A model generated the notes under the pieces. The model made no database searches, was not told the DNA's origin, and saw only the letters and a list, made by a program, of their open reading frames with translations. Positions 1 through 34,979 of a stretch of DNA of 40,447 bases are shown here, in pieces; position 1 is the first letter of the stretch, and each line of letters starts with the position of its first letter. This DNA comes from Leptospiraceae bacterium. Its GTDB lineage: Bacteria > Spirochaetota > Leptospiria > Leptospirales > Leptospiraceae. Position numbers and translations under genes: made by a program. Location of the stretch: assembly GCA_031368925.1 (NCBI GenBank), contig JANMOF010000135.1, positions 1 through 40,447 of the forward strand, in the 5' to 3' direction.

Positions 1-320
1 CCGGCCGTGCCACAATCCGCATCGATGTGAACCAGGGATGGGACGAGGTGACGGCGAAGCGGCTCCTCCCGCGCATGGCATCCGTGGGTGTGATGATGGC
101 CGAGCAGCCCCTGCCCAAATGGAATCTAGAGGGCATGAGCCGGCTCGCCACGTCCTCCCCGATAGCGATCATGGCGGACGAGGGCGTGGCGTCTTCCCAC
201 GATGCGATCGCTCATGTCCGTCAGCATGCAGCGAATGCAGTCGCGCAGGCATACTCGCAGTTCTCGAGTCAGATGCTGGAAATGAATTCAGTGCGCGTAT
301 ATTTCCAATTCCCGCGAAGG
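1..320. other. GC-rich segment (about 60% GC) compositionally foreign to the rest of the window. It carries the 3' part of an ORF (27..335, + frame). The junction with AT-rich DNA lies at about 300-335
   Basis: Abrupt GC shift seen directly. The 27..335 translation is protein-like (Ala/Val/Gln-rich) and unlike the spirochaete-like remainder. Confidence 0.6.
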
Positions 321-331
321 GCGATAAGGAT

Positions 332-3100
332 TTAATTGTATCTTATTCAACAGTATTAGACACAAACCCTCCTCAATATACAATTCCATTGGTAGGATTA
401 CCAGAAATTGAAAATTTTAAAGTGACGGTTCTCTATGATGAAAAAGAATTTCAGCAGGAAAAAGCCAAGCCTTCCAAAGAAGAAGGAAGCACAGTAAACC
501 GAAAAGTATTTTCCATCCAAAAAAAGAATTATAAACCAGAAAGAGATTACGGGTTCGAGCACAAAACAAAGGGTAACCTCTATTTAAAAAATGATTCTCT
601 CTTTGCGCTTCATTTTGTTCCTGTAAAAGAATCTGCTAACGAAAAATTTAAAGAAGACAAAGTTGTTTTTTTAATTGATACCTCTGCCTCGGCTGCGATT
701 CGTTACCAAGATCACCTAGAAAGAATCGAAGATATCTTAAGACAAATGCCTGCTAAAGAAATTCATATCTTTGGATTTGATAATAAGCTTAGCTATTATG
801 GAAATTCTAAGGAAGATTTAGATAAATTAAAAAAAATTCTTCCTCTAGGAGCGAGTAATATCTATTCTGCGCTAAAAGGAATTCCTACCAAAGCAGAAAT
901 AAAAGAAGCCCGCCTGGTGGTATTTTCAGATGGTGTTGCTACCGCTGGAACCATTGAAAAAACAAAGATAGCCGATTTAGTAAAGGGTCAAAAATGGATT
1001 AGCCGCTTGGACTTCATTATTCCTGGAACCTATAAAGACCCAGGACTTATTAAAAAAATAATTCCCCTTGGAAAAAACCCGGGCGCGTCTATTGATTTAG
1101 GGGATGATATTGAAGAAATTCTAAAAAAATTAAACCGAAAAGTTCATACAGATAATAAAGTTTCTATTCCAGGGGTAAAATGGTTTTATCCGGATACACT
1201 TGATTCCATTCAACCCGGCGATCCGGTTGTAGTATTTGGAGAGCTAAAGGATAAGGACGGTAATCCGTCAAAAGACATTCTTTTTAACGGAAAGCCAGTT
1301 GATAGTTTTACGAATCTCACAATGGATGAACTTCTCTTAGAGCGTGAGGCAATGGCAGCGCGAATCAATCGACTCATTGACCTTTCCGAAAAAGAACAAA
1401 ATGAAGATACAGCGAAAGGATTTGAATTACAAGCACGCGAGCTTTCGATTAAACATAGAATTCAATCTCCGTATACATCCTTTTTAGTTTTAGAAACGGA
1501 AGCAGACTATGCCAGGTTTCAAATTACACGAAATTCTCTTACGAATATTTTAACCATCGGTGTGAGTGGACTAGAGGTGATTAACCGCCGCAATGCAAAG
1601 AACTATGAATTTCTAAGCGAAGAAAAAATTGAAGAAGCAAGACGAGAAAAAGAAGCACAAGCAAATCGTGTAACTAAAAATCACGCCAAGAAAAAATCCA
1701 AGGGGAAAAATGGAGGTTCCGCTTCTTCGAGTGACTCTATTGCAGCGAATAAAATGGATGCAGACTACGATGAAGACGATGCTTCAATGGAGGAACCAAG
1801 AAGATCAAGTGATAAAAAGTCTCTTGATATGAAAGTATCAGAGAAGGAAACCTCTAAACAATTCAATGGCAAGGGATTCACGCCGGAAGGACCCGCAGGA
1901 ACAGAACCAAATCTTCCACCTGGATACAAAGACATGGATTATCAAAAAGGAGATAAATCCCCTGCATCAGGCAAATCCTCCGTAGCCGACATGAAGCCTT
2001 CCCCAAAACCAGAATCTAAAACAGAGGAGCTAAAAAAAGAAGCAACGGTGGAAAAACCTCAGCAAGTTCCGGCTAAGACTGTTATAACGATTAACGACGA
2101 ACCAGAGCCCCTACCCGAAAGAGAAAGGCGAAGACTGGAATCCATTCGTAGACCACCTCCCCGCCCCCGTCCTGAGGTTGATGAAAAAAGAGAAAAAGTA
2201 GAGCCATATACTGGAAATATGAAAAAGTTTCAAAGCCTTTTGGATAAAAAGGAATTGAAGAAGGCATATCAATTTGCACTCGACTGGAGAATTAAAAGTC
2301 CAGATGATGCACTAGCTCTCATTGCACTTGGGGATGCATTTGATAAGTTAGGCGATAAGCCAAATACAATTCGAAGCTATACTTCTCTCGTAGATTATTT
2401 TCCGAAACGTGCGGATATTCGTCGTTGGGCGGGAGAGAAGCTAATGTCAATTGGTGAATATGATGATGCGATAGACACATTAAATCACGCACTCATCCAG
2501 AGACCGGATCATCCAAGTAGCTACCATCTATTAGCCATTGCCTACATCAAAGACAAACAATACAAGAATGCGGCAGGAGTGACATTAAAAGGAATTAATT
2601 ACCAATTTGACGGAAGATTTGGCGCCGTGCATGATATTCTATATGATGACTTAGATCTTGCTTACAGCCTTGCGATGAAAACAGACGGTAAAGACAAAGA
2701 GTATTTTACAAAAATAAAATCCGAATATAAAATTAAGCAGCTAACGAAGGAAATCCGTTTTATCCTGGTTTGGGAAACAGATGCAAATGACGTTGACTTT
2801 CATATCTACGATAAGAATGGAAACCATGCTTTTTACAGTGCGATGGAACTTGCAACTGGTGGTGCGCTATATGCTGATTTAACCGGCGGCTACGGACCTG
2901 AGTGCTTTCGTATCATTAACCCACTTGCATTTCCTTATAAACTAGAAGCTCATTATTATAGCCGTGGTCCTATGGGATACGGCATGGGGGCAGTTCAGAT
3001 TATCCGCTATGATGGTGATAAGACATTGGAAGTGGATACCCGTGATTATGTGATAATGAATGATGGAGCATTCTTGGATTTGGGAAGTGTTAAGGAGTAG
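332..3100 (+). CDS. 5'-truncated VIT/vWA protein. It has the tail of a VIT-like domain, a vWA domain with the MIDAS motif D-T-S-A-S, a Lys/Glu/Pro-rich disordered linker, TPR-like repeats and a C-terminal beta-domain (DUF2135-like). No start codon is present in the AT-rich part
   Basis: [16 protein letters not shown] motif. [10 protein letters not shown] motif typical of bacterial VIT-vWA proteins. TPR-like helices [10 protein letters not shown]...[10 protein letters not shown]. First in-frame Met comes only after the MIDAS motif. The upstream in-frame sequence is Arg/Gly-rich read-through of the GC-rich segment. Confidence 0.65.
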
Positions 3101-3632
3101 AATTCCCCTGAATTTCCCTAATCATAACCTGTAAGCTAGTTTCCAGTGCATGGGAAATCTCTTCTTCCACGTGGAGATTTCCCTCTTTATCTACTTTGTT
3201 TCTTAAAAACGCAATATGCACAGCAGCTTCTTCGATTATCCGCGCTGACATCACGGATAACGTTTCAGATAATGATGCCTTAATAATTGGAGATGCATTT
3301 AAAAAGGCGACAGGCTTTCCTACAAACTCACCACTTGACACAACCCAATCAAGTGCATTCTTAAAAACGCCCGGAATTCCATGTGCATATTCAGGACAAG
3401 AAATATAAAATCCATCGGCTAATGCGAGTTCTCTGCGCCAAATTTTTACATTTGGTAGGACTTCGTCTTTATCTAGGTCTGGATTAAAATGAGGAAGCTG
3501 GTCGATATGTATACTAATTTTGAAATCTACATTCTTGGGTGCAAGCTTTGCTAACTCTTGTAAGGCTGCAAGATTGGAAGATCCCTTGCGTAGACTTCCA
3601 GAAAGTCCAAGTATTCTAATTCTATTTACCAT
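3090..3632 (-). CDS. NAD(P)H-dependent FMN reductase (flavodoxin-like fold, ChrR/YieF family)
   Basis: [16 protein letters not shown]-terminal motif, [21 protein letters not shown]. Length 180 aa. Confidence 0.8.
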
Positions 3633-4105
3633 TTACAATGCTCGATATTTATTTCAGTCCATTGGAGTGGGATCATATTGGGATGCATATTCTCATCTTC
3701 TTTGAGCTTTAAAACCTTTGCTGTTTTATCAAGTGCTTCAAATCCCCAATAGAATTTATGACCATTACGCGCAGTAGAAAGATCGGGACAATTGGCAAGT
3801 CCGCTATGGTATGTGGGTGAATACTGTTTGCCTTTGTCGTCGATTAGAATGTTGGATTGTAAAATAGTGCACGCGCTATAGTCTTTGATAAATTCCATCT
3901 CGATGACTGTCTTGCCCTTACCCACACAAATTTTATTGACTCTAATCTCGTTGTATGTGTTGACATGAAAAATTTCACAACATACGATGTCACCTTTTGA
4001 TGGTTTAGGTTTATCAGTCTTCGCCTTAACTTTCATTTCTCCAATTCTTGCAAAAAGCGAAACTGAAATAAAAGCGGCTAATAGTAATAATACTGTCTTC
4101 ATCAT
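3626..4105 (-). CDS. Secreted Cys-containing protein, tandem paralogue A (signal peptide, 159 aa)
   Basis: N-terminal hydrophobic signal MMKTVLLLLAAFISVSLFA. Conserved CC, NCP, F-W-F-E-LDK and C-terminal H-C-K-W motifs shared with the neighbouring ORF. Confidence 0.6.
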   Translation of the reverse strand: MMKTVLLLLAAFISVSLFARIGEMKVKAKTDKPKPSKGDIVCCEIFHVNTYNEIRVNKICVGKGKTVIEMEFIKDYSACTILQSNILIDDKGKQYSPTYHSGLANCPDLSTARNGHKFYWGFEALDKTAKVLKLKEDENMHPNMIPLQWTEINIEHCKW

Positions 4106-4114
4106 GCTCTCCTT

Positions 4115-4594
4115 TTATAAATTGCAATGCCCGACTGTAACTTCTTTCCACGACCACCAATTCCATGCACCGCTCGTTGGATTTGGTGCAGTAGAATCCT
4201 CTTCTATACTAATTGAAATTGTGTTCTTGTCCAATTTTTCAAATTCCCAGGAAAAGAGAGTATTACCCTGAATTAGATTTGCCTTAGGACAGTTGCTAAT
4301 TCCATGAATGGCAAGCGGTTGATAACTCTTTCCCTTTTCGTCTGTAAGACTAATTTTATCTAAGTAGGAACAAGCATTGGCAGTATTTTCTAAATGCATA
4401 TAAATTAGAGTAGATTGCTTCATCTGGCAAAGTTTGATTAGCCGCACATTGTCTTGTTCTGTCGCCTGGAGAGCACAGCAATTTGTTTTCTTGGTTGCTT
4501 TTGCTTTTTTGATCGGTTTCACACCAGGGTTTATGATTGTATATACTTCACTTGATAAAAATGAAAGAAAAAGAAAAATTAGAACTCGTTTCAT
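4115..4594 (-). CDS. Secreted Cys-containing protein, tandem paralogue B (signal peptide, 159 aa)
   Basis: Signal MKRVLIFLFLSFLSS. Same Cys pattern and GHCNL C-terminus as 3626..4105. Confidence 0.6.
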   Translation of the reverse strand: MKRVLIFLFLSFLSSEVYTIINPGVKPIKKAKATKKTNCCALQATEQDNVRLIKLCQMKQSTLIYMHLENTANACSYLDKISLTDEKGKSYQPLAIHGISNCPKANLIQGNTLFSWEFEKLDKNTISISIEEDSTAPNPTSGAWNWWSWKEVTVGHCNL

Positions 4595-4597
4595 AAA

Positions 4598-5764
4598 CTA
4601 CCCCTTCACACAAAGAATTTGTTTTAACTCGAATTCTACCTTCACTAAATCTTTTTGATTTTGAATTACTTCATCAATGTTTTTGTAGGCTCCTGGAATT
4701 TCATCTAGAACTCCCCCGTCTTTTCTACACTCAACACCAGAAGTTTGTGCTTCTAAGTCCTGTAGAGAATAATTCTTCTTAGCCTGTGTGCGACTCATGC
4801 GCCTTCCTGCCCCATGAGAGGCGGAATGAAACGATTCAGGATTTCCAAGACCGCGAACGATATAAGACTTAGTTCCCATTGATCCGGGGATAATACCCCA
4901 TTCCCCCTCGCGGGCAGAAATAGCTCCTTTGCGAGTAACAATTACATCTTCTCCGAAATGAGTTTCTTCTGAAACATAATTGTGATGACAAAGAATTGGC
5001 TCTTCAAATTTGATTTCTGGAAAGAATCCTTTTAGAATTGTTTTATAAATTTCAAACATAGTTTGTCGGTTTAGCAATGCGTATCGTTGCGCCCAGAATA
5101 AATCTCTTCTGTATGCTTCCATTTCGGGAGTATTGGCAAGAAAAACCGCAAGGTCTCTATCCGGCAAATAGGTATTATGCGATAGTTTCTTAGCTGTGGA
5201 TATATGAATCTCAGCAAGCGTCTTACCGATATTACGCGAACCGGAATGAAGCATCATCCAGACAGTGTTTTCCGTATCCAAACAGAGTTCTATGAAATGG
5301 TTTCCACCGCCGAGTGTTCCGCATTGATAGATTGCCTTTGACTCCAGTTTCATTACTTTTGGGTGGAGGGAACGAAATTCGGCAAATAATGAATTTGTCC
5401 TACTTTGCACTTTTGGTTGCTTGTGCTCGTTAAATCCAACTGGAATTTTTTGTTCGATTTTATTTCGAATTTCCAATAAGCTATCGGGTAACGCATCTGC
5501 TTTTAAGTTTGTGCGAATCGCACCCATTCCGCAACCAATGTCAACTCCCACCGCCGCGGGGCTAATGGCATCTTTCATAGCAATCACAGATCCAACAGTA
5601 GCACCAATTCCGAAATGCACATCGGGCATAACAGCGACATGCCGGAAAACCCACGGGAGGCTCGCAATATTTTTGAGTTGAGTCAAAGCTTGTGATTCAA
5701 CATCTTCGAGTTTCGTCCAAAGTTTTACGGGAACAGTTTTGCCTTGTAATTCAGAAATTGCCAT
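4598..5764 (-). CDS. rtcB: RNA-splicing ligase RtcB (3'-phosphate/5'-OH RNA ligase)
   Basis: HFGIGATVGSV, GCGMGAIRT, HSGSRNIG, HHNYVSEE and NPESFHSASHGAGRRMSR motifs characteristic of RtcB. Confidence 0.9.
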   Translation of the reverse strand: MAISELQGKTVPVKLWTKLEDVESQALTQLKNIASLPWVFRHVAVMPDVHFGIGATVGSVIAMKDAISPAAVGVDIGCGMGAIRTNLKADALPDSLLEIRNKIEQKIPVGFNEHKQPKVQSRTNSLFAEFRSLHPKVMKLESKAIYQCGTLGGGNHFIELCLDTENTVWMMLHSGSRNIGKTLAEIHISTAKKLSHNTYLPDRDLAVFLANTPEMEAYRRDLFWAQRYALLNRQTMFEIYKTILKGFFPEIKFEEPILCHHNYVSEETHFGEDVIVTRKGAISAREGEWGIIPGSMGTKSYIVRGLGNPESFHSASHGAGRRMSRTQAKKNYSLQDLEAQTSGVECRKDGGVLDEIPGAYKNIDEVIQNQKDLVKVEFELKQILCVKG

Positions 5765-8168: not shown

Positions 8169-8954
8169 ATGAAAATACATCCTACAGCTATTATAGACCC
8201 GAAAGCAGAACTGCATGAATCGGTAGAAGTGGGACCTTATTCCATCATCGAAGGCGATGTGCAAATAGGAGAGGGTTCTTGGATTGAAAGTTGTGTAAGA
8301 ATTTATTCTGGAACACGAATGGGAAAATTTAATAAGGTGCATCATACCGCGGTTATCGGCGGATTGCCACAAGATTTAAGTTTTAAACCTGAGACTAAAA
8401 CTTATACTCAAATTGGAGATCATAATACTTTTCGCGAAGGCTTTACCTTGCACAGGGCAACTAAAGAAGGAAACGCAACGATCATTGGAAACAAAAATTA
8501 TTTCATGGGTCAAGCGCATATCGCACACGATTGTGTATTTGGCGATGAAAACATTATCGTTCTAAACGGACAAGTCGCAGGACATTGTCATATTGGAAAC
8601 CATGTTTTTATTTCTGGCTTAGTTGGACTCCATCAATTTTGTAGCGTTGGCGACTATGCTATGTTAGCCGCTTGCTCTAAGATTCCACGAGATGTTCCGC
8701 CCTATGTAACTATTGATGGAAATCCAGCAACAGTCATCGGACTCAATTCTGTTGGGTTAAAAAGAGCAGGTTTTTCTCCTGATACGCGCAATAAAATTAA
8801 ACATGCTTACAAAGTGATTTATCATTCGAAGATGAATACCTCACAAGCATTAGAGGTATTAAAAGCAGAAAATGATCCTTCCCCTGAGGTAAAATACATT
8901 ATCCGCTTCATCGAAACTTGTGAAAGAGGAATCACAGATCACAGAGCCATATGA
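8169..8954 (+). CDS. lpxA: Acyl-ACP:UDP-N-acetylglucosamine O-acyltransferase LpxA
   Basis: Left-handed beta-helix hexapeptide repeats from the N-terminus (IHPTAIIDPKAELHESVEVGPYSII...). About 260 aa. Helical C-terminus typical of LpxA. Confidence 0.85.
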   Translation: MKIHPTAIIDPKAELHESVEVGPYSIIEGDVQIGEGSWIESCVRIYSGTRMGKFNKVHHTAVIGGLPQDLSFKPETKTYTQIGDHNTFREGFTLHRATKEGNATIIGNKNYFMGQAHIAHDCVFGDENIIVLNGQVAGHCHIGNHVFISGLVGLHQFCSVGDYAMLAACSKIPRDVPPYVTIDGNPATVIGLNSVGLKRAGFSPDTRNKIKHAYKVIYHSKMNTSQALEVLKAENDPSPEVKYIIRFIETCERGITDHRAI

Positions 8955-9922
8955 GATTAATCGTATCCGGGGGAGCCGGGTATATAGGAAGCCATATCGT
9001 ATGCGAGTTAAACGCCCGCACAGAACATGAAGTAGTTGTTGTTGATTCAATGGAAAAAGGTTGTGAGGTAAATCTTTTTTCCAAGAATGAATTTATCAGG
9101 GGGGATATTGCAGATGACACTATTCTAAAGAAAATCTTTTCGAAAAAAGTAGACGCAGTATTTCATTTTGCCGCCTGGAAAGGTGCAGGCGAATCAATGT
9201 TACTCCCTGAAAAGTATTCTATCAATAATCTGAACGGAACTTTAAAACTCCTAACTGCCATGTCAGAAAATGGCTGCAAGAAAATTATCTTTTCTTCTTC
9301 TGCCGCAGTCTACGGCGCACCAGTATATCTTCCAATAGACGAAAAGCATCCTTTGAACCAGGAAAATTATTACGGCTACACTAAATTTGCCATTGAAGAA
9401 AATCTTAAGTGGTATGATAAACTAAAAGGAATTAAGTTTGCCGCTTTGCGCTATTTTAACGCTGCGGGCTATGACACACAGGGTCGTGTGCGTGGATTAG
9501 AAAGAACTCCTGCCAATCTTCTTCCTATCATCATGGAAACTGCTTCCGGTATGAGAAAGAGTTTTGATATTTTCGGTGACGACTATGAAACACCTGATGG
9601 AACTTGCATCCGAGATTACATACACGTTAGCGATCTTGCTCTTGCTCATCTTTTAAGTTTGGATTATATTGTTGCAAACGAGAGTTCAATCACGATTAAC
9701 CTCGGCTCTGAAAATGGATATTCAGTAAAAGAAATTACTTCTATGGCTGAGAGTGTTGTGGGAAAATCCATTCCTCATAAGATCGGTCCACGTCGTCCTG
9801 GAGATCCCGCAAAGCTTCTTGCCTCCTCCGCTAAGGCGCGTGAGCTTTTAAAGTGGAAACCAGTATTCAGTGATTCCAAGACACTTATAGAATCTATGTG
9901 GAATGTATATCCTAGAGGGTAA
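8951..9922 (+). CDS. galE: UDP-glucose 4-epimerase GalE (SDR family). The ATGA start/stop overlap with lpxA indicates coupling
   Basis: GGAGYIGSH Rossmann motif. YGYTK catalytic YxxxK. 323 aa. Confidence 0.85.
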   Translation: MRLIVSGGAGYIGSHIVCELNARTEHEVVVVDSMEKGCEVNLFSKNEFIRGDIADDTILKKIFSKKVDAVFHFAAWKGAGESMLLPEKYSINNLNGTLKLLTAMSENGCKKIIFSSSAAVYGAPVYLPIDEKHPLNQENYYGYTKFAIEENLKWYDKLKGIKFAALRYFNAAGYDTQGRVRGLERTPANLLPIIMETASGMRKSFDIFGDDYETPDGTCIRDYIHVSDLALAHLLSLDYIVANESSITINLGSENGYSVKEITSMAESVVGKSIPHKIGPRRPGDPAKLLASSAKARELLKWKPVFSDSKTLIESMWNVYPRG

Positions 9923-10534: not shown

Positions 10535-11845
10535 TTAACTAACGAATGCCGCAAAGCAAGGAGAAGACTCCATCAAAGCTTTCTTAGTGATGTAACAATA
10601 TCCTTTATCGCCCCAACTTGTTCCCCAAGAATTTTTCACTATGTAATAGTTTCCGATATAACCAACTATCAACATTGAGTGACACCCATGTTTTCCGGAC
10701 GGTTTTTCTGCTTGTCTCAAAATTCCATCTCGACCAATTTTCTGAAACTCTGTTCCTGTGTTCATATAAAATTCTACAGGTATACCCTTCGACAGTAATT
10801 TTTTCAGATCTTCAATTCCAACATTAACAGGGTTTAGCTTAATCTTGTAATTTGCCGCATCCTTATTCATTTCTTCTTCACTAACTTTTGGTTTTTTGTC
10901 ATCGTTAGGCCATAACTTTGCGCTGCAAATTCCATACTTGACTATATTCTTAAAAGGCTCAATATTTCCTGGAGTTCCATCGGAAGCAGCATGAGCTTTT
11001 TCAAAACTAGTGAATTTTTTTAGAAGTTTATGTGTGCGTAACATGGTATAGTTAGTAGAAAGTTCTTCATGCTTTTTGTTAGCCATTATTCGCAGCATTT
11101 CAAATCCATGTGTCATAGCATATGCTTTACAACGCCCAGTCTGTTTTTGGTTACCAATCGGAGAACAGTATTTTCTTAGATCAACTATTTCCTTAGGGTC
11201 TACATTTTTCAATTCATCTGGAAGTACTTGCGGTTTTGGTATTTCTTCTTTTCGAGGAGGATCTACCAAATGTAGATTTTCGGTTTGAAACTTCTGTCCG
11301 AAAATAGCTAGCAGAATAGCAAACGACTCCGGTGTTAAGAATCCCTGTGGAATTACCATGTCTCCGTTTTTATAAAACTTTATCGTATCAAAAGAAGAAC
11401 TTGGACTTTCAAAAGCTAATTGTTCATAGTAACTGCTAGCCGCTGCTTCTTCAACCGGTTCATTTCCTTCTTCAGCCATCCAATCGTCATATGATTCACC
11501 GAAATGTTCGTTGTCAGCAAAAACCTTTCCACCAAATTCCTCATAGTCTTCGTCTGACCAATCACCATTATCCTCTTCTAGCCATTCATCTTCTAAATCA
11601 TAATCAGCAGCCGACTCAAATGCATCGTCATCGTCACCAAGATCATAATCTAATTCTTCTCCATCATCTTCGGGCTCTTCCTCTGCTTCTTCTTCACCAG
11701 ATTCATCTTCTTCTGGCTCGTCACTTCCTGTATCATCCGAATCGTCTTCGTCCGGAGAAAAAAGTTGAAGATCCATTAAAAAAACTGGATGCAAAACTTC
11801 CTTATTATTCTCGCTTTCTATAATTACTTTTTCATTATTCTCCAT
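10535..11845 (-). CDS. Papain-like (family C1A) cysteine peptidase with a ~170-aa poly-acidic (Asp/Glu-rich) N-terminal extension and no signal peptide
   Basis: VDLRKY...SPIGNQKQTGRCKAYA (Gln/Cys region). GKHGCHSMLIVGY (His). YIVKNSWGTSWGDKGYCYI (Asn-Ser-Trp-Gly). N-terminus EDDSDDTGSDEPEEDESGEEEAEEEPEDDGEE. Confidence 0.8.
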   Translation of the reverse strand: MENNEKVIIESENNKEVLHPVFLMDLQLFSPDEDDSDDTGSDEPEEDESGEEEAEEEPEDDGEELDYDLGDDDDAFESAADYDLEDEWLEEDNGDWSDEDYEEFGGKVFADNEHFGESYDDWMAEEGNEPVEEAAASSYYEQLAFESPSSSFDTIKFYKNGDMVIPQGFLTPESFAILLAIFGQKFQTENLHLVDPPRKEEIPKPQVLPDELKNVDPKEIVDLRKYCSPIGNQKQTGRCKAYAMTHGFEMLRIMANKKHEELSTNYTMLRTHKLLKKFTSFEKAHAASDGTPGNIEPFKNIVKYGICSAKLWPNDDKKPKVSEEEMNKDAANYKIKLNPVNVGIEDLKKLLSKGIPVEFYMNTGTEFQKIGRDGILRQAEKPSGKHGCHSMLIVGYIGNYYIVKNSWGTSWGDKGYCYITKKALMESSPCFAAFVS

Positions 11846-14565: not shown

Positions 14566-15921
14566 TTATTTATCTTCTTCCTCTTCATCATCATCTTCCT
14601 CTTCTTCGTCATCACCCTCTTCTTCGTCATCACCCTCTTCTTCGTCGTCTTCCTCTTCCCCCGAATCTTCGATTTGCCAAGTTTCAGTTAAGGTTGCTAA
14701 GAATTCCTCTTCTTCCTCAGAAAGATCATCAACACCTATGATTTCTCTTATATCATTTAAAATTTTTGCTAGTAAAGCAGCAGATAGATATTCTCCTACG
14801 AGACTTATTGATTCATCTAGAAGATCTTCATTGTCTTTTTCTTTCGCACAATTTTTTAGAATTGCTTTTGCAGACATAGTTACGCCCAATTTTTCAAGAG
14901 TGGTCTGCATATAAGTAGAGATTTCATCGTATTCTTCTTCACTAACATCTCCATCAGCTGCTGCAGCGGCTAATACGATTAGTCCGAGTCTAAACTCTAG
15001 CGGATAATCACCCATAGCATCTAGCATTTCTTGGTAGTCTTCCTCGCTCATATCTGCAAGTTCAGAATCATAGTCCCCAGTGATAGAAGACTCATCTCCC
15101 CAAGTAGATTCATCCACTTCAAAATTAGTAAGTTGCTTAATAATCCAAGTATCACCGTCATTGTATTTCGGATTAACCAGATAATCATATGGAATATAGC
15201 AATAACCCTTGTCTCCCCAATCCTCTCCCCATGAATTTCTAACAATAAAAACTTTATCTGGGTCAGAGTAGCCAACGCATAACATTGCATGTCCGCTGTG
15301 AGATTCCCTTGACTCTTCTGATGGAGTTGGAGCAGGGACTAATCCCGGTTTGCGCTGTGAGTCAAATGAATTAAATAAACTTAATCCAAAAATAATTGGA
15401 TGTCCTTCTGCTAATACTTGCTTCCAGGCATTTAAGTTTACCGGAACGGATTGCATATCTTCTACCACAAAATTTGCAGCTTCTGTAAAAGCTTCTTCCG
15501 GGGGCTCTTCCTTAAATTTGTCTATTTCATAGGGCCAAGTTCCTTCAGAACACGCACCTTTCTCTTGTAAACTTTCAATGGCAGACGCAATTACACATCC
15601 AGCATCTTCTTTAGCAGTTCCATCAATTTCTCTTGCATTATAATAAATGAAAAGCCTACTAACATCATAGCTGTCTATACCTTTGTGCTTTTTTACCAGA
15701 TATTCGTAAGCACCAGCTACTGCATTTGCGACACAACTTCCGATCTGGTCTTGGTCCTCTACTTTTGTCATATATTTCCTGAGATCGACTTTTGGAGGAA
15801 GCTTACTTGGAGCACTGCTACTTGCTGCATACTGTTTAGTTCCTGCTTTAGGTTTAGCCGCTTTGTAGCCATGAACTTGTCTTGATGAACCGTCTGCTCG
15901 ATTTAATGTAAAATTTGCCAT
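14566..15921 (-). CDS. Papain-like (C1A) cysteine peptidase fused to a TerB-like domain and a C-terminal poly-acidic tail. Probable start is the Met at 15921; the ORF extends to 15978
   Basis: KVDLRKYMTKVEDQDQIGSCVANAV, HSGHAMLCVGY and IVRNSWGEDWGDKGYCYI (C1A catalytic motifs). EFRLGLIVLAAAAADGDVSEEEYDEI...ILNDIREIIGVDDLSEEEEEFL (TerB-like). Tail EEEDDEEEGDDEEEGDDEEEEDDDEEEEDK. Confidence 0.75.
   Translation of the reverse strand: MANFTLNRADGSSRQVHGYKAAKPKAGTKQYAASSSAPSKLPPKVDLRKYMTKVEDQDQIGSCVANAVAGAYEYLVKKHKGIDSYDVSRLFIYYNAREIDGTAKEDAGCVIASAIESLQEKGACSEGTWPYEIDKFKEEPPEEAFTEAANFVVEDMQSVPVNLNAWKQVLAEGHPIIFGLSLFNSFDSQRKPGLVPAPTPSEESRESHSGHAMLCVGYSDPDKVFIVRNSWGEDWGDKGYCYIPYDYLVNPKYNDGDTWIIKQLTNFEVDESTWGDESSITGDYDSELADMSEEDYQEMLDAMGDYPLEFRLGLIVLAAAAADGDVSEEEYDEISTYMQTTLEKLGVTMSAKAILKNCAKEKDNEDLLDESISLVGEYLSAALLAKILNDIREIIGVDDLSEEEEEFLATLTETWQIEDSGEEEDDEEEGDDEEEGDDEEEEDDDEEEEDK
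14589..14658. repeat. Tandem 18-bp repeat of about 4 copies. Two are perfect (gtcatcaccctcttcttc at 14607-14624 and 14625-14642), flanked by degenerate copies. It encodes the (D/E)6 units of the acidic tail
   Basis: Read directly from the sequence. Unit is a multiple of 3. Confidence 0.8.
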
Positions 15922-16227
15922 TGTTGTTCCTTGAATTATAAAATCTAAATGAGAGAGAAATTTAAAAACTAAACCCATTAAAAAAAACTTATTGATTTAT
16001 TAAATGATAAATATTGAAATAGGCAAATTATTTTTTGCATTGCAAAATGTTATGCCAAACAAAGCAAGTGAGTCTTACTCTTATTATCCGGAAAACTAAT
16101 TTTATTTAAAAATAAGGTATGTATACTTACGTTAATGTTATATACAAAATAATCAAAAAAAAGTTTCTGGATTATTGCTTGGATAAAATTCCAAAAGTAA
16201 ATATCTCAAAATTAAAGGAAATAAAAA

Positions 16228-26868: not shown

Positions 26869-29800
26869 ATGTTTAAAAATATTAGCATTAAAGGCAAGTT
26901 AGTAACTGTCTTCGTTGGTTTCTTTGTATTTATAGTGGTTATTATATTGTATGCCCTATTACAGATGAGCACCCTTGGAACTATCACCGATAAAATCGCA
27001 AACGATAGAATTCCTAAAATCATGGCACTGTCAGAAATTTCCAAACAAGTCAACTTGATTGCGCGTGCAGCGCGAAATATGTATATCTTCAAAGATAAGG
27101 CTATGGTGAATGAAGAAAAAAATACTATTATGAAAAGTAGAGAGATGATCGGACAAAAATTAGATTATCTCAAACCAATCATTAAAAACCCAAAAGCTAT
27201 TGTAATTTTAACTGAAATTTTTGAGACAAGAAAAGAATTTATAGTAGCGCAAGATAAATTTATCATGGCAATCGAAAAAGATGATTCAGAAGCAGCGTAC
27301 GATGTTCTTTTAAAAGAATTTAGACCCATTCAATTGAAATACATCAGCTCTTTAGACACACTCCTAGAATTCCAATCTCAATCTTCTCAAAAAGAAGCAA
27401 ACGATGCAATCGGTTTTATTTCTACCGTTTCCACAAATATTGCCATAGCATCTATCCTGTTTGCTATTTTATTAATTTTTTTCGGAATAACTCTTATCCG
27501 CTCTATTATAAATCCAATTCATATATTAGAGAAAGCTGTCATTGAGATTGGGCAGAATGGAAATTTCGACGCAAAATTTGAAATTCATTCAGAAGACGAA
27601 ATGGGAACTTTTGCTAAAAATTTCCAAGAGATGATGAGTAACCTTAAATCTATGTTAGCCGACGCGTCCATGCTTTCAAGCGCTGCCGTAGAAGGAAAGC
27701 TTTCTACAAGAGCCAATGCAACTAAATACAAAGGTGATATGCGTAAAATAGTAGAAGGGGTTAACAATACATTAGACGCTGTGATTGGACCTCTTAATGT
27801 AGCTGCTGACTATGTTGATAAAATCTCGCGTGGTGTTATTCCTCCTAAAATTACTGACACTTACAACGGTGATTTTAATGTAATTAAAAATAACCTTAAT
27901 TTATTGATTCAAACATTAAACGAAGTAACATCTTCCCAAATAGAACTAACAAAAATTCACCATGAGCAAGGCTTAATCAGCGAAAGGATTGACGCAAGTA
28001 AATTTAGCGGAGTTTATGCCGATATGGCGAATAACGTCAATTCCCTAGTAGAACAACATATTCAAGTAAAAATGAGAATTGTTGAAGTGGTTACACGTTA
28101 TAGTATCGGAGATCTAAATGTTGATATGGATAGACTTCCGGGTCAAAAAGCAAAGATTACCGATTCAATTGATTCAGTAAAGAAAAGTCTTATTAGCCTC
28201 AACCAGGAAATTCTAACTTTAGTAAATGCGGCTATCGCCGGTAAACTCTCCACCCGTGCAGATGCAAATAAATTTCAATTTACATTTAAAGAAATGGTTT
28301 CAGGAATTAATCAGACGTTAGACGCAGTAATAGGACCACTTAACGTTGCCGCGGACTATGTTGATAAAATTTCTCAGGGAATTATTCCAGAACCGATCAC
28401 AAAAGAATATTTTGGAGATTTTAATACGATCAAATCTAATCTAAACATTCTTGTAAATACACTTAACCGTTTCCAATCTGATATGAAAACGATGACCAAT
28501 GAACAAAAAGCAGGCGATATAGATTATTATATTGATCCATCCGGGTTCAAAGGAATCTATAAAACAATGGCAGAGGGTGTAGTTGATAACGTAAAAATTC
28601 ATGTTACCAATATTTTAGAAATACTGAATACTGTCGGTGAGTATGGGGAGGGTAACTTAACTGTTGAATTGAAAAAACTTCCCGGAAAACAAATTATTGC
28701 AAATCAAAAAGTTGATAAGGTCCGCTCTAACCTATATCTATTAACTGAAGAAATAGAAATGCTCACGCAAGCTGCAGTAAACGGCAAATTATCCACAAGA
28801 GGAAATTCGAAAAAATTTAAAGGTTCCTACACTCAATTAATAGACGGGGTTAACAATATATTAGACGCTGTGATCCTTCCTATACAAGAAGCTTCTAGCG
28901 TATTACTAGAATTATCCAAAGGAAACCTAAGAGCTAGAGTTACAGGCGATTACAAGGGTGACCATGCTACTATTAAGACCGCTCTCAATTCAAGCTTAGT
29001 TACTCTAAACGAATACGTAGGAGAAATTTCAAGAGTTCTGTCTTCCATGTCATCAGGTGATTTGACAATTGATGTGACAAAAGACTTCGCGGGAGATTTT
29101 GCTGAAATTAAAAAAGCTCTCACTCTCATCGTGGATTCTTTTAACGAACTCATCGGAGAAATTATCAACGCCTCGGATCAAATCCTGATTAGCTCCAGAC
29201 AAGTCGCTGATTCCAGTCAATCTTTATCGCAAGGCTCTAATGAACAAGCTAGTAGTGTAGAAGAGATTACTGCAACGCTCGCCGTCATCGAACTCAAAGC
29301 TAAGGATAATGCCAATAATGCGAAGAATGCAAGTGAACGCGCATTAAGCGTCAAAGAGCAAGCTGTTGCAAGCAATAACGAAATGAAGGGAATGCTTAAA
29401 GCAATGGAAGAAATCAGTGATACATCTGAAAATATTGCTAAGATCATTAAAGAAATTGATGCCATTGCATTCCAGACAAACATACTCGCGTTAAACGCTG
29501 CTGTCGAAGCGGCACGTGCTGGACAACATGGAAAAGGGTTTAACGTTGTTGCGGAAGAAGTGCGTAACCTCGCATCACGAAGTGCGAACGCTGCAAAAGA
29601 AACTACAAAGATGATTGAAGGCTCGATCAAAACAGTTCGCTCGGGTATGGACATCGCGGGGCGAACGGCTAACGAACTAAACAAGATGACTGCGGGTGTT
29701 GTTGATGTAACAGAACTTGTAAAAGATATTGCTACTGCTTCGATTGAACAATCTTCTTCGGTTGTAGAAACTACATCGGGTATCAATCAAATTTCGCAAG

Positions 29801-29970
29801 TCACTATGAGTGCTGCTGCTACTGCCGAAGAAAGTTCTGCGGCTAGTCTTGAGTTGTCGAGCCAGGCAGAAGCTTTTCAAGCTATGGTGAAGAGATTTCA
29901 AATCAAAAGATCACGCGATGAGAAAAAGAACATTCAATCTTCTACTAAAAGAAAAATTGATTTGAAGTAA
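26869..29970 (+). CDS. mcp: Methyl-accepting chemotaxis protein with a 4HB-type sensor, a second TM, HAMP, three tandem ~90-aa HAMP-like repeat modules and a C-terminal MCP signalling domain
   Basis: TM helices flank a helical sensor region. Repeats G-K-L-S-T-R...LDAVIGPLNVAADYVDKIS...GDFN.IK.NLN.L occur three times. IAFQTNILALNAAVEAARAGQHGKGFNVVAEEVRNLASRSA signalling hairpin. Confidence 0.9.
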   Translation: MFKNISIKGKLVTVFVGFFVFIVVIILYALLQMSTLGTITDKIANDRIPKIMALSEISKQVNLIARAARNMYIFKDKAMVNEEKNTIMKSREMIGQKLDYLKPIIKNPKAIVILTEIFETRKEFIVAQDKFIMAIEKDDSEAAYDVLLKEFRPIQLKYISSLDTLLEFQSQSSQKEANDAIGFISTVSTNIAIASILFAILLIFFGITLIRSIINPIHILEKAVIEIGQNGNFDAKFEIHSEDEMGTFAKNFQEMMSNLKSMLADASMLSSAAVEGKLSTRANATKYKGDMRKIVEGVNNTLDAVIGPLNVAADYVDKISRGVIPPKITDTYNGDFNVIKNNLNLLIQTLNEVTSSQIELTKIHHEQGLISERIDASKFSGVYADMANNVNSLVEQHIQVKMRIVEVVTRYSIGDLNVDMDRLPGQKAKITDSIDSVKKSLISLNQEILTLVNAAIAGKLSTRADANKFQFTFKEMVSGINQTLDAVIGPLNVAADYVDKISQGIIPEPITKEYFGDFNTIKSNLNILVNTLNRFQSDMKTMTNEQKAGDIDYYIDPSGFKGIYKTMAEGVVDNVKIHVTNILEILNTVGEYGEGNLTVELKKLPGKQIIANQKVDKVRSNLYLLTEEIEMLTQAAVNGKLSTRGNSKKFKGSYTQLIDGVNNILDAVILPIQEASSVLLELSKGNLRARVTGDYKGDHATIKTALNSSLVTLNEYVGEISRVLSSMSSGDLTIDVTKDFAGDFAEIKKALTLIVDSFNELIGEIINASDQILISSRQVADSSQSLSQGSNEQASSVEEITATLAVIELKAKDNANNAKNASERALSVKEQAVASNNEMKGMLKAMEEISDTSENIAKIIKEIDAIAFQTNILALNAAVEAARAGQHGKGFNVVAEEVRNLASRSANAAKETTKMIEGSIKTVRSGMDIAGRTANELNKMTAGVVDVTELVKDIATASIEQSSSVVETTSGINQISQVTMSAAATAEESSAASLELSSQAEAFQAMVKRFQIKRSRDEKKNIQSSTKRKIDLK

Positions 29971-29979
29971 GGATTAAAT

Positions 29980-30468
29980 ATGACTACAACATTTGATGAA
30001 GAGCAACTCGAAGAATCACAGGATACGATGGAGAATCTCTACATCATCTTCTTCATTGATGGAAGGGAGTATGGAATAGAGATTCGTTACTTAATCGAAA
30101 TCATTGCCTTTCAACCGATTACGTTTATTCCCAATTTGCCGCAGTATGTAAAAGGAGTGATTAACCTACGTGGAAAAATTATTCCCGTTATTGATGTGCG
30201 GCTAAGATTCGGTTTGCCTCCGATCGAATACAACGAATTTACCTGTATCCTCATCATGAATATCAATAATCTCAGTGCGGGTCTTGTTGTCGATGGAGTC
30301 AAAGAAGTTTTAAAAATTCCGGCTGATGCTATTGAACCTTCGCCGGGATTTGAAGAAGCAGATGTGGAACGTTTTGTTGATTCCATTGGTAAGTCAGGTG
30401 ATACGTTAAAAATCCTTATCAACCTGAATAAATTTATTCATGAAAAAGATGTAAAAGGAATTGCTTAG
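29980..30468 (+). CDS. cheW: Chemotaxis coupling protein CheW
   Basis: 162 aa with CheW-like domain (IIFFIDGREYGIEI...GLVVDGVKEVLKIP). Position between mcp and cheA. Confidence 0.85.
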   Translation: MTTTFDEEQLEESQDTMENLYIIFFIDGREYGIEIRYLIEIIAFQPITFIPNLPQYVKGVINLRGKIIPVIDVRLRFGLPPIEYNEFTCILIMNINNLSAGLVVDGVKEVLKIPADAIEPSPGFEEADVERFVDSIGKSGDTLKILINLNKFIHEKDVKGIA

Positions 30469-30476
30469 GCTCAAAA

Positions 30477-32285
30477 ATGCTTGGAGAAAATGAACTTTCA
30501 GATCTTGTGCTTGATTCACAAGAAATTTTAGACAAAGCAGAAGGAATTCTGATTCACTTAGAAAAAAGTTTAACAGATTCGTCTGTTGACCCGGAAAAGG
30601 TAAACTCTTTATTCCGCTATTTCCATACCCTAAAAGGAAACGCGGGCTTTTTCAACTTCAATGTAATCGTTAGCCTCGCTCATTCTGCTGAATCACTACT
30701 CGAGATTGTAAGAAATGATAATTCTCTTCTAGATCAAAAAATGATTCAGCTTTTTATGGAAGCACGCGATACATTGTATGAAATTTTCTCCAATCTAAAC
30801 GAGAATAAGACAGATACAATGTTCAAAGATAAGGCGGATACATTGATTCCCCGCCTATTCTATATCAAAGCAAACCTTAAAGCAGAATCTACTGAACCTA
30901 GAAAAGAAGAACCCAGGTTTGGCATCTTCAAAAAGAAAATAGTGCTAACCGAGGAAGCTCCCACAGAAGAGAATAATAAAAATTTACCTCTAGAAAAAGA
31001 AAATCCCCCTACTCTAGAGAAAAAGAAGGCAACACCGATTGAGATTATTAACGGTAATGGAAATAATCAGGCAGCAGTTAAAAAAGACATTCGAATTGAA
31101 ACGGAAAAGCTAGATTACCTGCTCGACATGATAGGTGAGCTTGTGATTGCGGAATCTCTTGTTACCCAAAATCCTGACATTAAAGAATTAGATCTTCCTA
31201 ATTTTTCTATTCAATCTTCTTATTTACGCAAAGTTGTCCGTAACCTGCAAGAAGTATCCTTGCAGCTAAGAATGATTACCCTTGAAGGTTTATTCAATAA
31301 GATGGAAAGGCTAGTTCGAGACCTCGCACAAAAGACTGGAAAGAAGGTTGGACTCCAAATAACAGGAAAAGAAACCGAGATTGATAAAAATGCGCTCGAA
31401 ATATTGACTGACCCACTCGTTCATATAATTCGAAATTGCATTGATCATGGATTAGAAACAGGTGAAGAAAGACTAGCAAAGGGAAAACCGGAATCTGGAA
31501 ATATTAGAATTGAAGCAATGCACTCCGGTAATGAAGTTTGGATCATTGTTTCTGACGATGGTGCCGGACTAGACAAAGATAGAATTTTAACGAAAGCAAA
31601 GTCGCGCGGTTTAATCAAAGAAGGGGAAGAAGAAAATCTTAAAGATGAAAGGATTTGGGACTTCATATTTCAACCTGGATTTTCCACAAGCGACAAAGTA
31701 ACGGATATTTCTGGACGGGGCGTAGGTCTAGACATTGTTCGTAGAAACATAGCAAAGATCAACGGCGATATAGAAATCAAAACCAGGAAAGACCAGGGTG
31801 CTTCTTTTATTTTAAAATTACCACTTACAATTGCGATCATCGAAGGAATGGTTGTCATCTACAATGGGGTATTCTATATTATCCCCACAATCGACGTAAA
31901 AGAAACTCTTAACCTTACAGAATCAAAAATTGACTATATTGATCAAGACAAGAAAGTGATTCGCTTTAGAGATCAGCTAATACCTGTTGTCTCCGTAGAG
32001 AGGTTACTCAATCACGACTCGAGCGATAAAAACTCATCCTATGAAAAATCTCTTTATGTGATCATTGTGGAGTATAAGAATAATTCGCTAGCACTTGTAT
32101 TCGATGGAATTGTTGGCAATCAATCTGTCGTGATTAAACCTATTCCAGATTATCTAAAGGGCACAAAGGGATTTTCCGGTTGCACCATACTTGGAAGCGG
32201 AAATATAGGAATGATACTCGATATTAGATTCTTTATCAATAATTACTATAAGGAAAATAAAGAATCCGAAGCTTCCCATGGATAG
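30477..32285 (+). CDS. cheA: Chemotaxis histidine kinase CheA (P1 Hpt, linker, P3 dimerisation, P4 HATPase, P5 CheW-like). Short form of 602 aa with no recognisable P2
   Basis: Hpt His in FRYFHTLKGNAGFFNF. GRGVGLDIV G2 box. C-terminal CheW-like domain. Confidence 0.9.
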   Translation: MLGENELSDLVLDSQEILDKAEGILIHLEKSLTDSSVDPEKVNSLFRYFHTLKGNAGFFNFNVIVSLAHSAESLLEIVRNDNSLLDQKMIQLFMEARDTLYEIFSNLNENKTDTMFKDKADTLIPRLFYIKANLKAESTEPRKEEPRFGIFKKKIVLTEEAPTEENNKNLPLEKENPPTLEKKKATPIEIINGNGNNQAAVKKDIRIETEKLDYLLDMIGELVIAESLVTQNPDIKELDLPNFSIQSSYLRKVVRNLQEVSLQLRMITLEGLFNKMERLVRDLAQKTGKKVGLQITGKETEIDKNALEILTDPLVHIIRNCIDHGLETGEERLAKGKPESGNIRIEAMHSGNEVWIIVSDDGAGLDKDRILTKAKSRGLIKEGEEENLKDERIWDFIFQPGFSTSDKVTDISGRGVGLDIVRRNIAKINGDIEIKTRKDQGASFILKLPLTIAIIEGMVVIYNGVFYIIPTIDVKETLNLTESKIDYIDQDKKVIRFRDQLIPVVSVERLLNHDSSDKNSSYEKSLYVIIVEYKNNSLALVFDGIVGNQSVVIKPIPDYLKGTKGFSGCTILGSGNIGMILDIRFFINNYYKENKESEASHG

Positions 32286-33357
32286 TAACAGAAAAATAAA
32301 AGTATTTATCGTAGATGACCAAAGGGTTGTCCGAAATATAATCAAAAAAATGATTACAAGTGACCCGCAGATCGAAGTTGTCGGGGAAGCCTCCAACCCA
32401 TATGAGGCTAGCGAACTCATTCCTGAATTAGAGCCAGATGTGCTTACCCTAGATGTAGAAATGCCCCGCATGGATGGAGTGGAATTTTTGCGAAAGCTAA
32501 TGCCACAATATCCAATACCTGTAATAATGGTGAGTAGTACTACAGAGGAAGGATCAGAAAAAGCAATTCTAGCGATACAATACGGTGCGGTTGATTTTGT
32601 GACAAAGCCAGATGGGGGAGCGTTTACTCTAGAGTCAACGCAAGTAGAATTAATCCAGAAAATTAAAACTGCGTCTACTATCAATATTGATAGATGGCTC
32701 AAGCATTTAAAATATAAATCCCTCCCATTAGTAGCAAATCCAAATGCAGGTAAACAGCATAAAAGTAAGTATAACCTCATTGCAATTGGTGCATCAACAG
32801 GAGGAGTCACAGCAATACGAGAAGTGTTATCAACCGTTCCAAAGGATTTTCCATGCATTGTGATTACGCAGCATATGCCGCCAGGATTTACTGCAACTTT
32901 TGCAAAAGGTGTATCCAAAGACTTTGGACTCGATGTGCGAGAAGCGAAAGACTTAGATTTAATTCAAGCCGGACGTATTTATATTGCGCCTGGCGATTTT
33001 CATCTAGTAGTGAATAGAAGAAACGGAATAAACCATACAGTCGGATTAACGCAAACAGAAAAAGTAAACGGGCATAGACCTTCCGTAGATGTTCTATTTC
33101 ATTCCATAGTTGAGAATAAACTTGCACCGGAGACAATTGGCATTATTTTGACAGGCATGGGTATGGATGGAGCAAAGGGACTACTCGCAATGCGAGATGC
33201 AGGCTCAAGAACAATTGGAGAAAACGAACAATCGGCTCTGATTTATGGAATGCCAAAAGTGGCTCACGACATTGGAGCTGTAGAAGAGCAACTTCCACTT
33301 TCTATGATGGTATCCAAATTAAAAACGTATTTGAATTACTCGGGTTTGTATGTCTGA
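32278..33357 (+). CDS. cheB: Chemotaxis response regulator protein-glutamate methylesterase CheB
   Basis: REC domain (VFIVDDQRVVRN...LTLDVEMPRMDG) plus methylesterase motifs IAIGASTGG, HMPPGFT and GMGMDGAKG. Confidence 0.9.
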   Translation: MDSNRKIKVFIVDDQRVVRNIIKKMITSDPQIEVVGEASNPYEASELIPELEPDVLTLDVEMPRMDGVEFLRKLMPQYPIPVIMVSSTTEEGSEKAILAIQYGAVDFVTKPDGGAFTLESTQVELIQKIKTASTINIDRWLKHLKYKSLPLVANPNAGKQHKSKYNLIAIGASTGGVTAIREVLSTVPKDFPCIVITQHMPPGFTATFAKGVSKDFGLDVREAKDLDLIQAGRIYIAPGDFHLVVNRRNGINHTVGLTQTEKVNGHRPSVDVLFHSIVENKLAPETIGIILTGMGMDGAKGLLAMRDAGSRTIGENEQSALIYGMPKVAHDIGAVEEQLPLSMMVSKLKTYLNYSGLYV

Positions 33358-34597
33358 CAAAATATTACTTTATACTAAAAATGAAACAATTGTAGAACAG
33401 GTCACAGCCTATATTAGTGATCTTACTTATAAATTCAGTGTAGCGGATAATATAGATAATCTCACGACCAATCTAAGATCAGAAGAGTCATGGCTTTTAG
33501 TATATGACTTTATGGATACTTCAAAAGAGAATCAAAAAAATCTCGCTAACATATTAGCTGATTATCCATTTCAATTGGTAATTCTTTTAATCAACAGGGA
33601 TGAAGGCGATGAATTCATCCAGATGATGGAAAATTATAATGTCTATGACATTGTTGCTTACCCAATTTATAAATTCAAATTACATTTTGCCATAACAAAA
33701 GCAGTTAGCTACGGAAGAGTCATATCGAAAATTTCAGACTTTAAATCTAACGAAAAACAAGTTTTCGAATCTATGATCAAAGTGTTTGATTGGCGAAAAG
33801 AACTCGATACCAGGAAAGTAGAATCCCTGGCTAATGAACTTATACACCAAATCAATATTAGCTTCTTTCATGGAAGCGGGCTCGGTTCTCTTATTAGCAC
33901 ACTCAGTATTTTATTTTCGAAAGCAAAATTGGACGAAGATAAAAAAGCCTACCTGGTTCATGAAAAAATTTACCAATTATTAAAAGACAATTATGATGAA
34001 ATTCTAAAACTAAGCGATAGTCTTACCAAAACACAGGAAATACTTGCTGAAAAGAATTACTATACCGAAAAAATGACTCTTAAGGATTTTTACAGTGCGT
34101 TAACCGCAATGGTAAAAGGAATGAAACCAATAGCTGGAATTAAAACCCAAAAAATAGTGATGGGAAATTTTCCAATAGAACTTGCATCTAGATCAATCAT
34201 AGCAAGCCCTGAAAATTTAAAGCTAGTCTTTGATGAATTACTCACAAATGCAATCAAATACTCTGAAGACGGGGATACTATCTATATATTATTTTCTCAT
34301 GATAAGTCCGATCTGGGAATTAGAATTTTAAACCCTGCTTATAAAAATTCTGACGGAACCGTAGGGATAACAGAGAGTAATGCACATAAAATATTCGAAC
34401 CATTTTTCAGATTGACGAATGTTGTTGATGATAGATTTATGCAGGAGACATTTCGATTTGGCTTAGGTCTCACCGTCGTAAATAAAATTATTGATTTACA
34501 TAAAGGTAGCATTTCGTTTTATACAACAGACAATAATATGAGACGAGATAGTAACACAAAAGATGTTTGTGTTTGGGTTAGATTTCCCATTTTATAA
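33350..34597 (+). CDS. Histidine-kinase-like ATPase (HATPase_c) protein with an N-terminal receiver-like (possibly pseudo-receiver) domain and no canonical H-box
   Basis: N-box ELLTNAIKYS. G2 box GLGLTVVNKIIDLHKGSI. N-terminal alpha/beta region with LVILLINRDEGDEF resembling REC. Translationally coupled to cheB (8-nt overlap). Confidence 0.6.
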   Translation: MSDKILLYTKNETIVEQVTAYISDLTYKFSVADNIDNLTTNLRSEESWLLVYDFMDTSKENQKNLANILADYPFQLVILLINRDEGDEFIQMMENYNVYDIVAYPIYKFKLHFAITKAVSYGRVISKISDFKSNEKQVFESMIKVFDWRKELDTRKVESLANELIHQINISFFHGSGLGSLISTLSILFSKAKLDEDKKAYLVHEKIYQLLKDNYDEILKLSDSLTKTQEILAEKNYYTEKMTLKDFYSALTAMVKGMKPIAGIKTQKIVMGNFPIELASRSIIASPENLKLVFDELLTNAIKYSEDGDTIYILFSHDKSDLGIRILNPAYKNSDGTVGITESNAHKIFEPFFRLTNVVDDRFMQETFRFGLGLTVVNKIIDLHKGSISFYTTDNNMRRDSNTKDVCVWVRFPIL

Positions 34598-34616
34598 AAA
34601 GCAAGGTAGGTAGAGT

Positions 34617-34979
34617 ATGAAAAAAGTTCTTATAGTTGATGACTCCCCAATGGTTTTAAATATAATTGAGACTGCCCTGAGCCTCGAGGATTATGACGTA
34701 GTTCGAGCGTCTAATGCTGATGAGGCGCTAAAAAAAATGGATGAAGGAAAATTTGACTTTGGTATCTTCGATGTAAACATGCCGGGAAAAACAGGAATAG
34801 AACTTGTTCCATTGGTCTTAAATCATCCCAATGGAAAAGAGATGAAAATCGTTATTCTCACCACTGAGTCAAGCTCCGAAATTCGAAAGAAAGGAGAAGA
34901 TGCAGGCGCATGTGCATGGATGGTAAAACCTTTCAAAAATGCAGAAATGATAGACCTACTAAAACAACTAGAAGAATAA
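34617..34979 (+). CDS. cheY: CheY-like single-domain response regulator
   Basis: VLIVDDSPMVLN...FDVNMPGKTGIEL...KPF, 120 aa. Confidence 0.8.
   Translation: MKKVLIVDDSPMVLNIIETALSLEDYDVVRASNADEALKKMDEGKFDFGIFDVNMPGKTGIELVPLVLNHPNGKEMKIVILTTESSSEIRKKGEDAGACAWMVKPFKNAEMIDLLKQLEE

Follow-up and report, generated by a model that had tools for sequence, protein, structure and literature searches.

Results

The window analysed here, meaning the whole stretch of DNA, is the entire 40,447-nucleotide (nt) NCBI contig JANMOF010000135.1 of a Leptospiraceae bacterium (assembly GCA_031368925.1), and our subject is the junction at its left end. On the forward strand, nt 1 to 246 form a foreign segment of high G+C content (GC) that holds an internal fragment of a gene for an MR/MLE enzyme of the enolase superfamily, and nt 257 to 3100 are the 3′ 88% of a Leptospiraceae gene for a VIT-vWA-TPR protein (frame 2; stop codon at nt 3098 to 3100). 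A short filler, within nt 247 to 260, fits neither parent. The two parts are of different origin, both genes are cut within a domain, the foreign part lies at the contig end and the VIT-vWA-TPR gene is intact in relatives. The proteins encoded at nt 3093 to 3632 and 4118 to 4594 are recorded from an NCBI contig of precisely 40,447 nt. As the window is the entire contig, the foreign DNA makes up its terminal 246 to 260 nt, about one read length. The original prediction was of a chimeric junction produced by an artefact, a contig-end join or a recent insertion, and our analysis supports it.

The step in base composition is as abrupt as had been predicted. The GC content is 65.0% in nt 1 to 246 and 36.0% in nt 261 to 40447, and it drops from 65-66% to 31-42% inside about 100 nt at the start of the window. 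The first 250-nt interval has a GC fraction of 0.652 versus a mean of 0.360 for the others (standard deviation [SD], 0.044; maximum, 0.496), an excess of about 6.6 SD, and there is no second GC-rich island in the 40 kb, where all other 250-nt intervals are at or below 0.496. With an excess of this size, unmatched in 40 kb, the step is real and far beyond chance. By codon position, GC is 68/49/76.5% in the foreign fragment versus 52/35/31% in the VIT gene (third-position GC, 30.7%); the composition and codon usage of the foreign segment are unameliorated. The break itself had been placed at nt 320 to 330 or so, a position that we correct to nt 246 to 260: similarity to the donor extends to nt 245/246 (246 by blastn), and similarity to the recipient begins at nt 257.

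The codons of the foreign segment lie in frame 3 of the plus strand (nt 3 to 245), which is open at the contig end, free of stops and well conserved. These ~81 codons correspond to residues ~187 to 267 of a protein of ~370 to 380 amino acids (aa) that resembles (chloro)muconate cycloisomerase. The fragment matches the Pfam family MR_MLE_C (PF13378; 62.2 bits, cut-off 29.4; E = 7.8e-17; profile positions 45 to 123 of 219) and TIGR02534 (muconate/chloromuconate cycloisomerase; positions 187 to 271 of 368), and it aligns with residues 188 to 267 of the chloromuconate cycloisomerase PDB 1NU5 (E = 5e-17). It keeps the 'DVNQGWD', 'EQP' and 'ADE' segments of the 1NU5 family, which carry the three metal ligands of the family. 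With identities of 45-69%, no substrate can be assigned to the donor protein. The nearest relatives among GTDB species representatives are Bradyrhizobium proteins (L005 to L009; 66-69% aa identity), which are complete 378-aa enzymes with both MR_MLE_N and MR_MLE_C. The best matches have 63-69% aa identity in JGI metagenome contigs and 63-65% when 1.84 billion cluster representatives are searched exhaustively with HMMER.

No close donor, with a match above 70% identity, was found in GTDB species representatives, JGI metagenomes, IMG/VR, PLSDB or a collection of 15 billion proteins. A word-indexed protein search with the fragment returned no match, blastn against the PLSDB plasmids gave none to the donor segment, and exact patterns of the junction and of the GC-rich part had 0 matches in IMG/VR. 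The expectation that the GC-rich part encodes protein is borne out by its family match; the proposed separate search of this piece for a source yielded the Bradyrhizobium relatives and no close one.

The fragment is incomplete on both sides. All of its protein alignments end at residue 81 to 83 (nt 245 to 251), and nucleotide alignments end at nt 246 at the latest. After the break the Bradyrhizobium homologs read 'ALKVTKSGG...' and the window reads 'AQAYSQFSS', so that the fragment breaks off in mid-domain, ahead of the 'ALK..K.GG' strand with its conserved Lys, and is without ~186 N-terminal and ~110 C-terminal residues. No complete MR/MLE enzyme is present at the contig end, where MR_MLE_N, the full barrel and the second catalytic Lys were not found; with ~81 of ~375 residues, ending before the Lys strand, there is no enzyme here. 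A conserved and stop-free fragment indicates a snippet of a functional gene of another organism and not a decaying insert, and the left part is an internal slice of a functional-looking gene from a high-GC, probably alphaproteobacterial, organism. The protein-like frame predicted at nt 27 to 335 is accordingly coding up to nt 245, and its remainder, beyond nt 246, is an out-of-frame read-through into the VIT gene.

The filler (unstranded) spans nt 247 to 260 (AGGCATACTCGCAG) on a strict reading or nt 247 to 256 otherwise, i.e., 14 or 10 nt, and may be written AGGCATACTC(GCAG); the GCA at nt 257 to 259 may already belong to the VIT gene. Compared base by base with three related contigs (L001, L002 and L003) and with Bradyrhizobium-type loci, it fits none of them. 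It encodes 'AV' where orthologs down to 49% identity have an invariant 'PALLESD', and no other copy with up to two mismatches occurs in the window or in any compared locus. No microhomology of at least 8 nt is found at the breakpoint, no tRNA is found, and the junction has no direct or inverted repeats and no mobile-element ends. The break falls at about coordinate 418 of the VIT-vWA-TPR gene, inside its most conserved block (89-92% between L001 and L002, which are 80% identical overall).

Three candidate explanations of the join were rejected. The 10-mer ATGCTGGAAA is shared with three Bradyrhizobium homologs, in which it follows the break by about 90 nt; in the window it is at nt 273 to 282, already inside sequence attributable to the VIT gene, and it was rejected as the join site. 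A CTCGAG (XhoI) site is present at nt 263 to 268, the start of recognisable VIT sequence, where relatives have CTTGAG or CTAGAG; this difference is probably synonymous or coincidental, and a simple ligation of two restriction fragments at this site does not fit, as the MLE homology ends 17 nt earlier. Insertion of a genomic island or mobile element does not fit the lack of a tRNA and of junction repeats or the foreign DNA, which is an enzyme fragment only. The locus resembles horizontally acquired islands in having atypical GC beside native DNA, but it differs from them in lacking complete foreign genes, an integrase, a tRNA, flanking repeats and amelioration, and only 250 nt are visible, at a contig end.

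On the right of the junction, the window copy of the VIT-vWA-TPR protein is 91-92% identical to the orthologs P0001 (1071 aa) and P0239 (1080 aa; 92%) from residue ~133 to the C-terminus. Full-length orthologs are 1058 to 1080 aa long, begin with a signal-peptide-like segment and carry a VIT domain, and proteins of this type are annotated 'VIT domain-containing protein' in Leptospira ilyithenensis and L. kobayashii. The window copy aligns by BLASTP only from residue 132 to 134 of P0239; the 131 to 133 missing codons comprise the signal peptide and ~80 of the 108 residues of the VIT domain, i.e., about three quarters. The predicted removal of the N-terminus of this gene is thus confirmed. Pfam VIT (PF08487) is matched at residues 53 to 160 of P0239 and 61 to 168 of P0001 (80 bits) and is not matched in the window copy, consistent with the loss of these codons. 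Of the remaining domains, the TPR families are significant and the C-terminal domain is retained, and the match to VWA_2, at 21.5 bits against a cut-off of 27, is weak. A DxSxS MIDAS-like motif, DTSAS, is encoded at nt 677 to 691, and the first in-frame ATG, at nt 746, lies 3′ of it, as had been noted. It had also been stated that no in-frame ATG, GTG or TTG occurs between nt 320 and this ATG, which is incorrect: TTG 389 and GTG 422 are in frame, though nothing suggests that either is used as a start.

Related contigs show what the locus looks like when uninterrupted. Two of them, L001 (NCBI GCA_020051655.1) and L003 (JGI 3300036715, contig Ga0373634_0001603), are 92.5% and 90.7% identical to the window by blastn, in both cases from nt 257; L002 is 82% identical, from nt 263. 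All three carry an intact gene of 1065 to 1080 aa with AT-rich upstream DNA, which in L001 and L003 holds a small open reading frame (ORF) followed by pntA/pntB. The downstream order (FMN reductase [FMN_red], two small ORFs and RtcB), shared with the loci of P0001 and P0239, is colinear with L001 and L003 over at least 12 kb. None of these relatives shows the junction, and the only start codon that the GC-rich part offers is ATG 38, which opens an unrelated Arg/Gly-rich sequence. The same strain is represented by Logan contigs from ERR1352939 (100% over 1.4 kb, nt 2992 to 4412) and SRR20217172 (99.8% over 2.8 kb), and these contigs (L004 and L037) stop short of the junction. A search for the 5′ end of the VIT gene from this strain, with residues 1 to 133 of P0239 plus residues from the window as the query, gave no N-terminal fragment above 69%, and no mention of run ERR1352939 was found in the literature.

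Discussion

Our results suggest that the terminus of this contig is chimeric and was made while a metagenome was being sequenced or assembled, either from a chimeric read or tip or through a mis-join. We regard this origin as very likely, and we hold with greater confidence still that the junction is an artefact of one kind or another, post-assembly merging included. The grounds for an artefact are that the foreign DNA is contig-terminal, read-sized and unameliorated, that both genes are cut in mid-domain, that the linker is junk, that the junction bears no biological signature and that the relatives are intact. Judged from the sequence, the junction would not be a real feature of the Leptospiraceae genome, and we infer an in vitro or in silico origin. 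The assembler may have strayed from the true path within the block of the VIT-vWA-TPR gene that is most conserved; at such a block, it is plausible that the assembly graph of a metagenome branches and that a contig stops. The contig would then have been extended by a chimeric read, read pair or tip carrying ~246 nt of high-GC DNA from the middle of an MR/MLE cycloisomerase-like gene of a co-occurring or contaminating bacterium, related to Alphaproteobacteria/Bradyrhizobium, with ~10 to 14 nt of junk added at the join. The real genome would run upstream into codons 1 to 133 of the VIT-vWA-TPR gene and on into AT-rich neighbours, which are expected to be a small ORF and then pntA/pntB as in the two closest relatives, and the true sequence 5′ of about nt 257 would read '...CATCGCAAACAAGATCCTGCACTT'.

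Among the recognised kinds of database contamination are contigs of metagenome-assembled genomes that contain chimeric joins (PMC10978663, section 2.7). The present contig resembles these in having two unrelated organisms in one contig with an abrupt switch of composition and taxonomy, a foreign part at the contig end and genes broken at the join. It is unlike the chimeric contigs flagged by checks of the GUNC or Conterminator type, as its foreign part is ~250 nt long with a donor match of at most 69% aa identity; since this part is smaller than one gene, genome-level and gene-taxonomy tools would not flag it.

Several points weigh against an assembly artefact. The choice between an artefact and a real junction rests on inference from the sequence. 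A filler of 10 to 14 nt is unlike a simple mis-join at a shared k-mer; it fits a chimeric or low-quality read and also illegitimate recombination in vivo. A separate donor genome is itself only putative, because no match above 70% to the donor sequence was found. Contig ends, moreover, are enriched for real strain-level structural variation.

These points lead to the possibility that the junction is real and belongs to a strain or subpopulation in which high-GC, alphaproteobacterium-like DNA was inserted into the VIT-vWA-TPR gene by illegitimate (non-homologous) recombination. The 5′ end of the gene would then be deleted or displaced and the gene inactivated, and the contig would end because the assembly graph branches at a strain-variable site, as real strain variation often coincides with contig ends. 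A filler without homology to either side does resemble the junctions left by illegitimate recombination, and the sequence is clean and of good coding quality on both sides. However, the composition is completely unameliorated, the cuts in mid-domain leave neither gene with a selectable product, there is no mobile-element, tRNA or repeat signature, and the gene is intact in all relatives. The foreign stretch also ends after ~250 nt, where an insert at genome coverage should assemble further, and with a branch at a real variant the contig would normally stop at the junction itself and not 250 nt past it. We therefore consider a real junction improbable, and give the same low credence to its specific form, a very recent and unameliorated insert from an unsequenced donor, with ~10 to 14 nt of filler, that knocked out a gene for a VIT-vWA-TPR surface protein. 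Slightly more doubtful is a merging of two organisms' binned contigs end to end after assembly, whether during scaffolding, gap closing, contig merging or reassembly, with the foreign contig kept only as its last ~250 nt. The terminal position of the junction and its short, unassignable linker would be consistent with such a step, and chimeric records are documented to arise from contig merging (PMC10978663), but the junction contains no run of N, far more than 250 nt would normally be expected from a merged contig, and a high-GC contig is rarely binned with a genome of 36% GC.

It could also be proposed that the junction has created a fusion gene, whose product would be functional and would have acquired a new N-terminus. 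No stop interrupts frame 2 from the first base of the contig, and ATG 38, which lies in the foreign DNA but in the wrong frame, yields an uninterrupted ORF of 1020 aa (nt 38 to 3100, plus strand) that runs into the VIT gene. The first ~73 codons of this ORF, however, are a wrong-frame reading of the MLE fragment, rich in Arg and Gly and without a homolog by BLASTP, which agrees with the original description of the upstream extension as nonsense, and an opening of that size in frame 2 is a chance expectation in DNA of 65% GC. The fusion product would have no signal peptide and would be missing most of its VIT domain; both elements are present in all orthologs of 1058 to 1080 aa. The exact 1020-aa ORF is missing from the collection of 15 billion proteins, in which neighbouring proteins of the same contig are present. 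We conclude that this ORF is spurious and that ATG 38 is no real gene start; the probability of an expressed fusion protein appears negligible.

The value of these findings is mainly one of data hygiene. Nucleotides 1 to 260 of the public contig should be trimmed, and the VIT-vWA-TPR gene should be annotated as 5′-partial; it should be called neither a pseudogene nor a fusion, nor should it be given a product of 1020 aa from ATG 38. Chimeras between phyla that are smaller than a gene and lie at contig ends escape genome-level contamination checks, and such chimeras can produce false calls of gene truncation, gene fusion or horizontal gene transfer. Were the junction real, it would be a modest case of very recent DNA acquisition across phyla that inactivated a surface protein.

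Other features of the contig

Downstream of the VIT-vWA-TPR gene, the RtcB protein encoded at nt 4598 to 5764 (minus strand) is 100% identical to that of L003 (nt 8629 to 9795), and the surrounding DNA is 87-91% identical, which implies very strong purifying selection on RtcB. The two small ORFs between the FMN reductase gene and RtcB (nt 3626 to 4594, minus strand) are tandem paralogs of ~159 aa with signal-peptide-like N-termini and no Pfam match; the pair is found in the same place in all relatives (nt 9051 to 10519 in L001 and nt 9799 to 11267 in L003). Two genes for papain-family (Peptidase_C1) cysteine proteases, at nt 10535 to 11845 and 14566 to 15978 (both minus strand), lie less than 4 kb apart, and L003 has one Peptidase_C1 gene at the colinear position.

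A chemotaxis-type cluster occupies nt 26869 to 34979 (plus strand) and consists of a 1033-aa MCP followed by CheW, CheA, CheB, a histidine kinase and a single-domain response regulator; the HAMP_2/HAMP_N3 repeats of the MCP form an array of unusual length (HAMP_2, 301 bits). Beyond it, nt 35098 to 37587 (plus strand) encode an 829-aa protein like the eukaryotic major vault protein (MVP), with Pfam matches to MVP_shoulder (1.5e-23), Vault_3 (4e-8) and Band_7 (6e-7) and with residues 451 to 682 aligned to rat and human MVP in the PDB (E of about 1e-11). The MVP-like gene and the VIT-vWA gene are on the same contig, 32 kb apart; the vault-associated protein VPARP likewise contains VIT and vWA domains. 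Bacterial homologs of MVP have already been described (bioRxiv 10.1101/872010).

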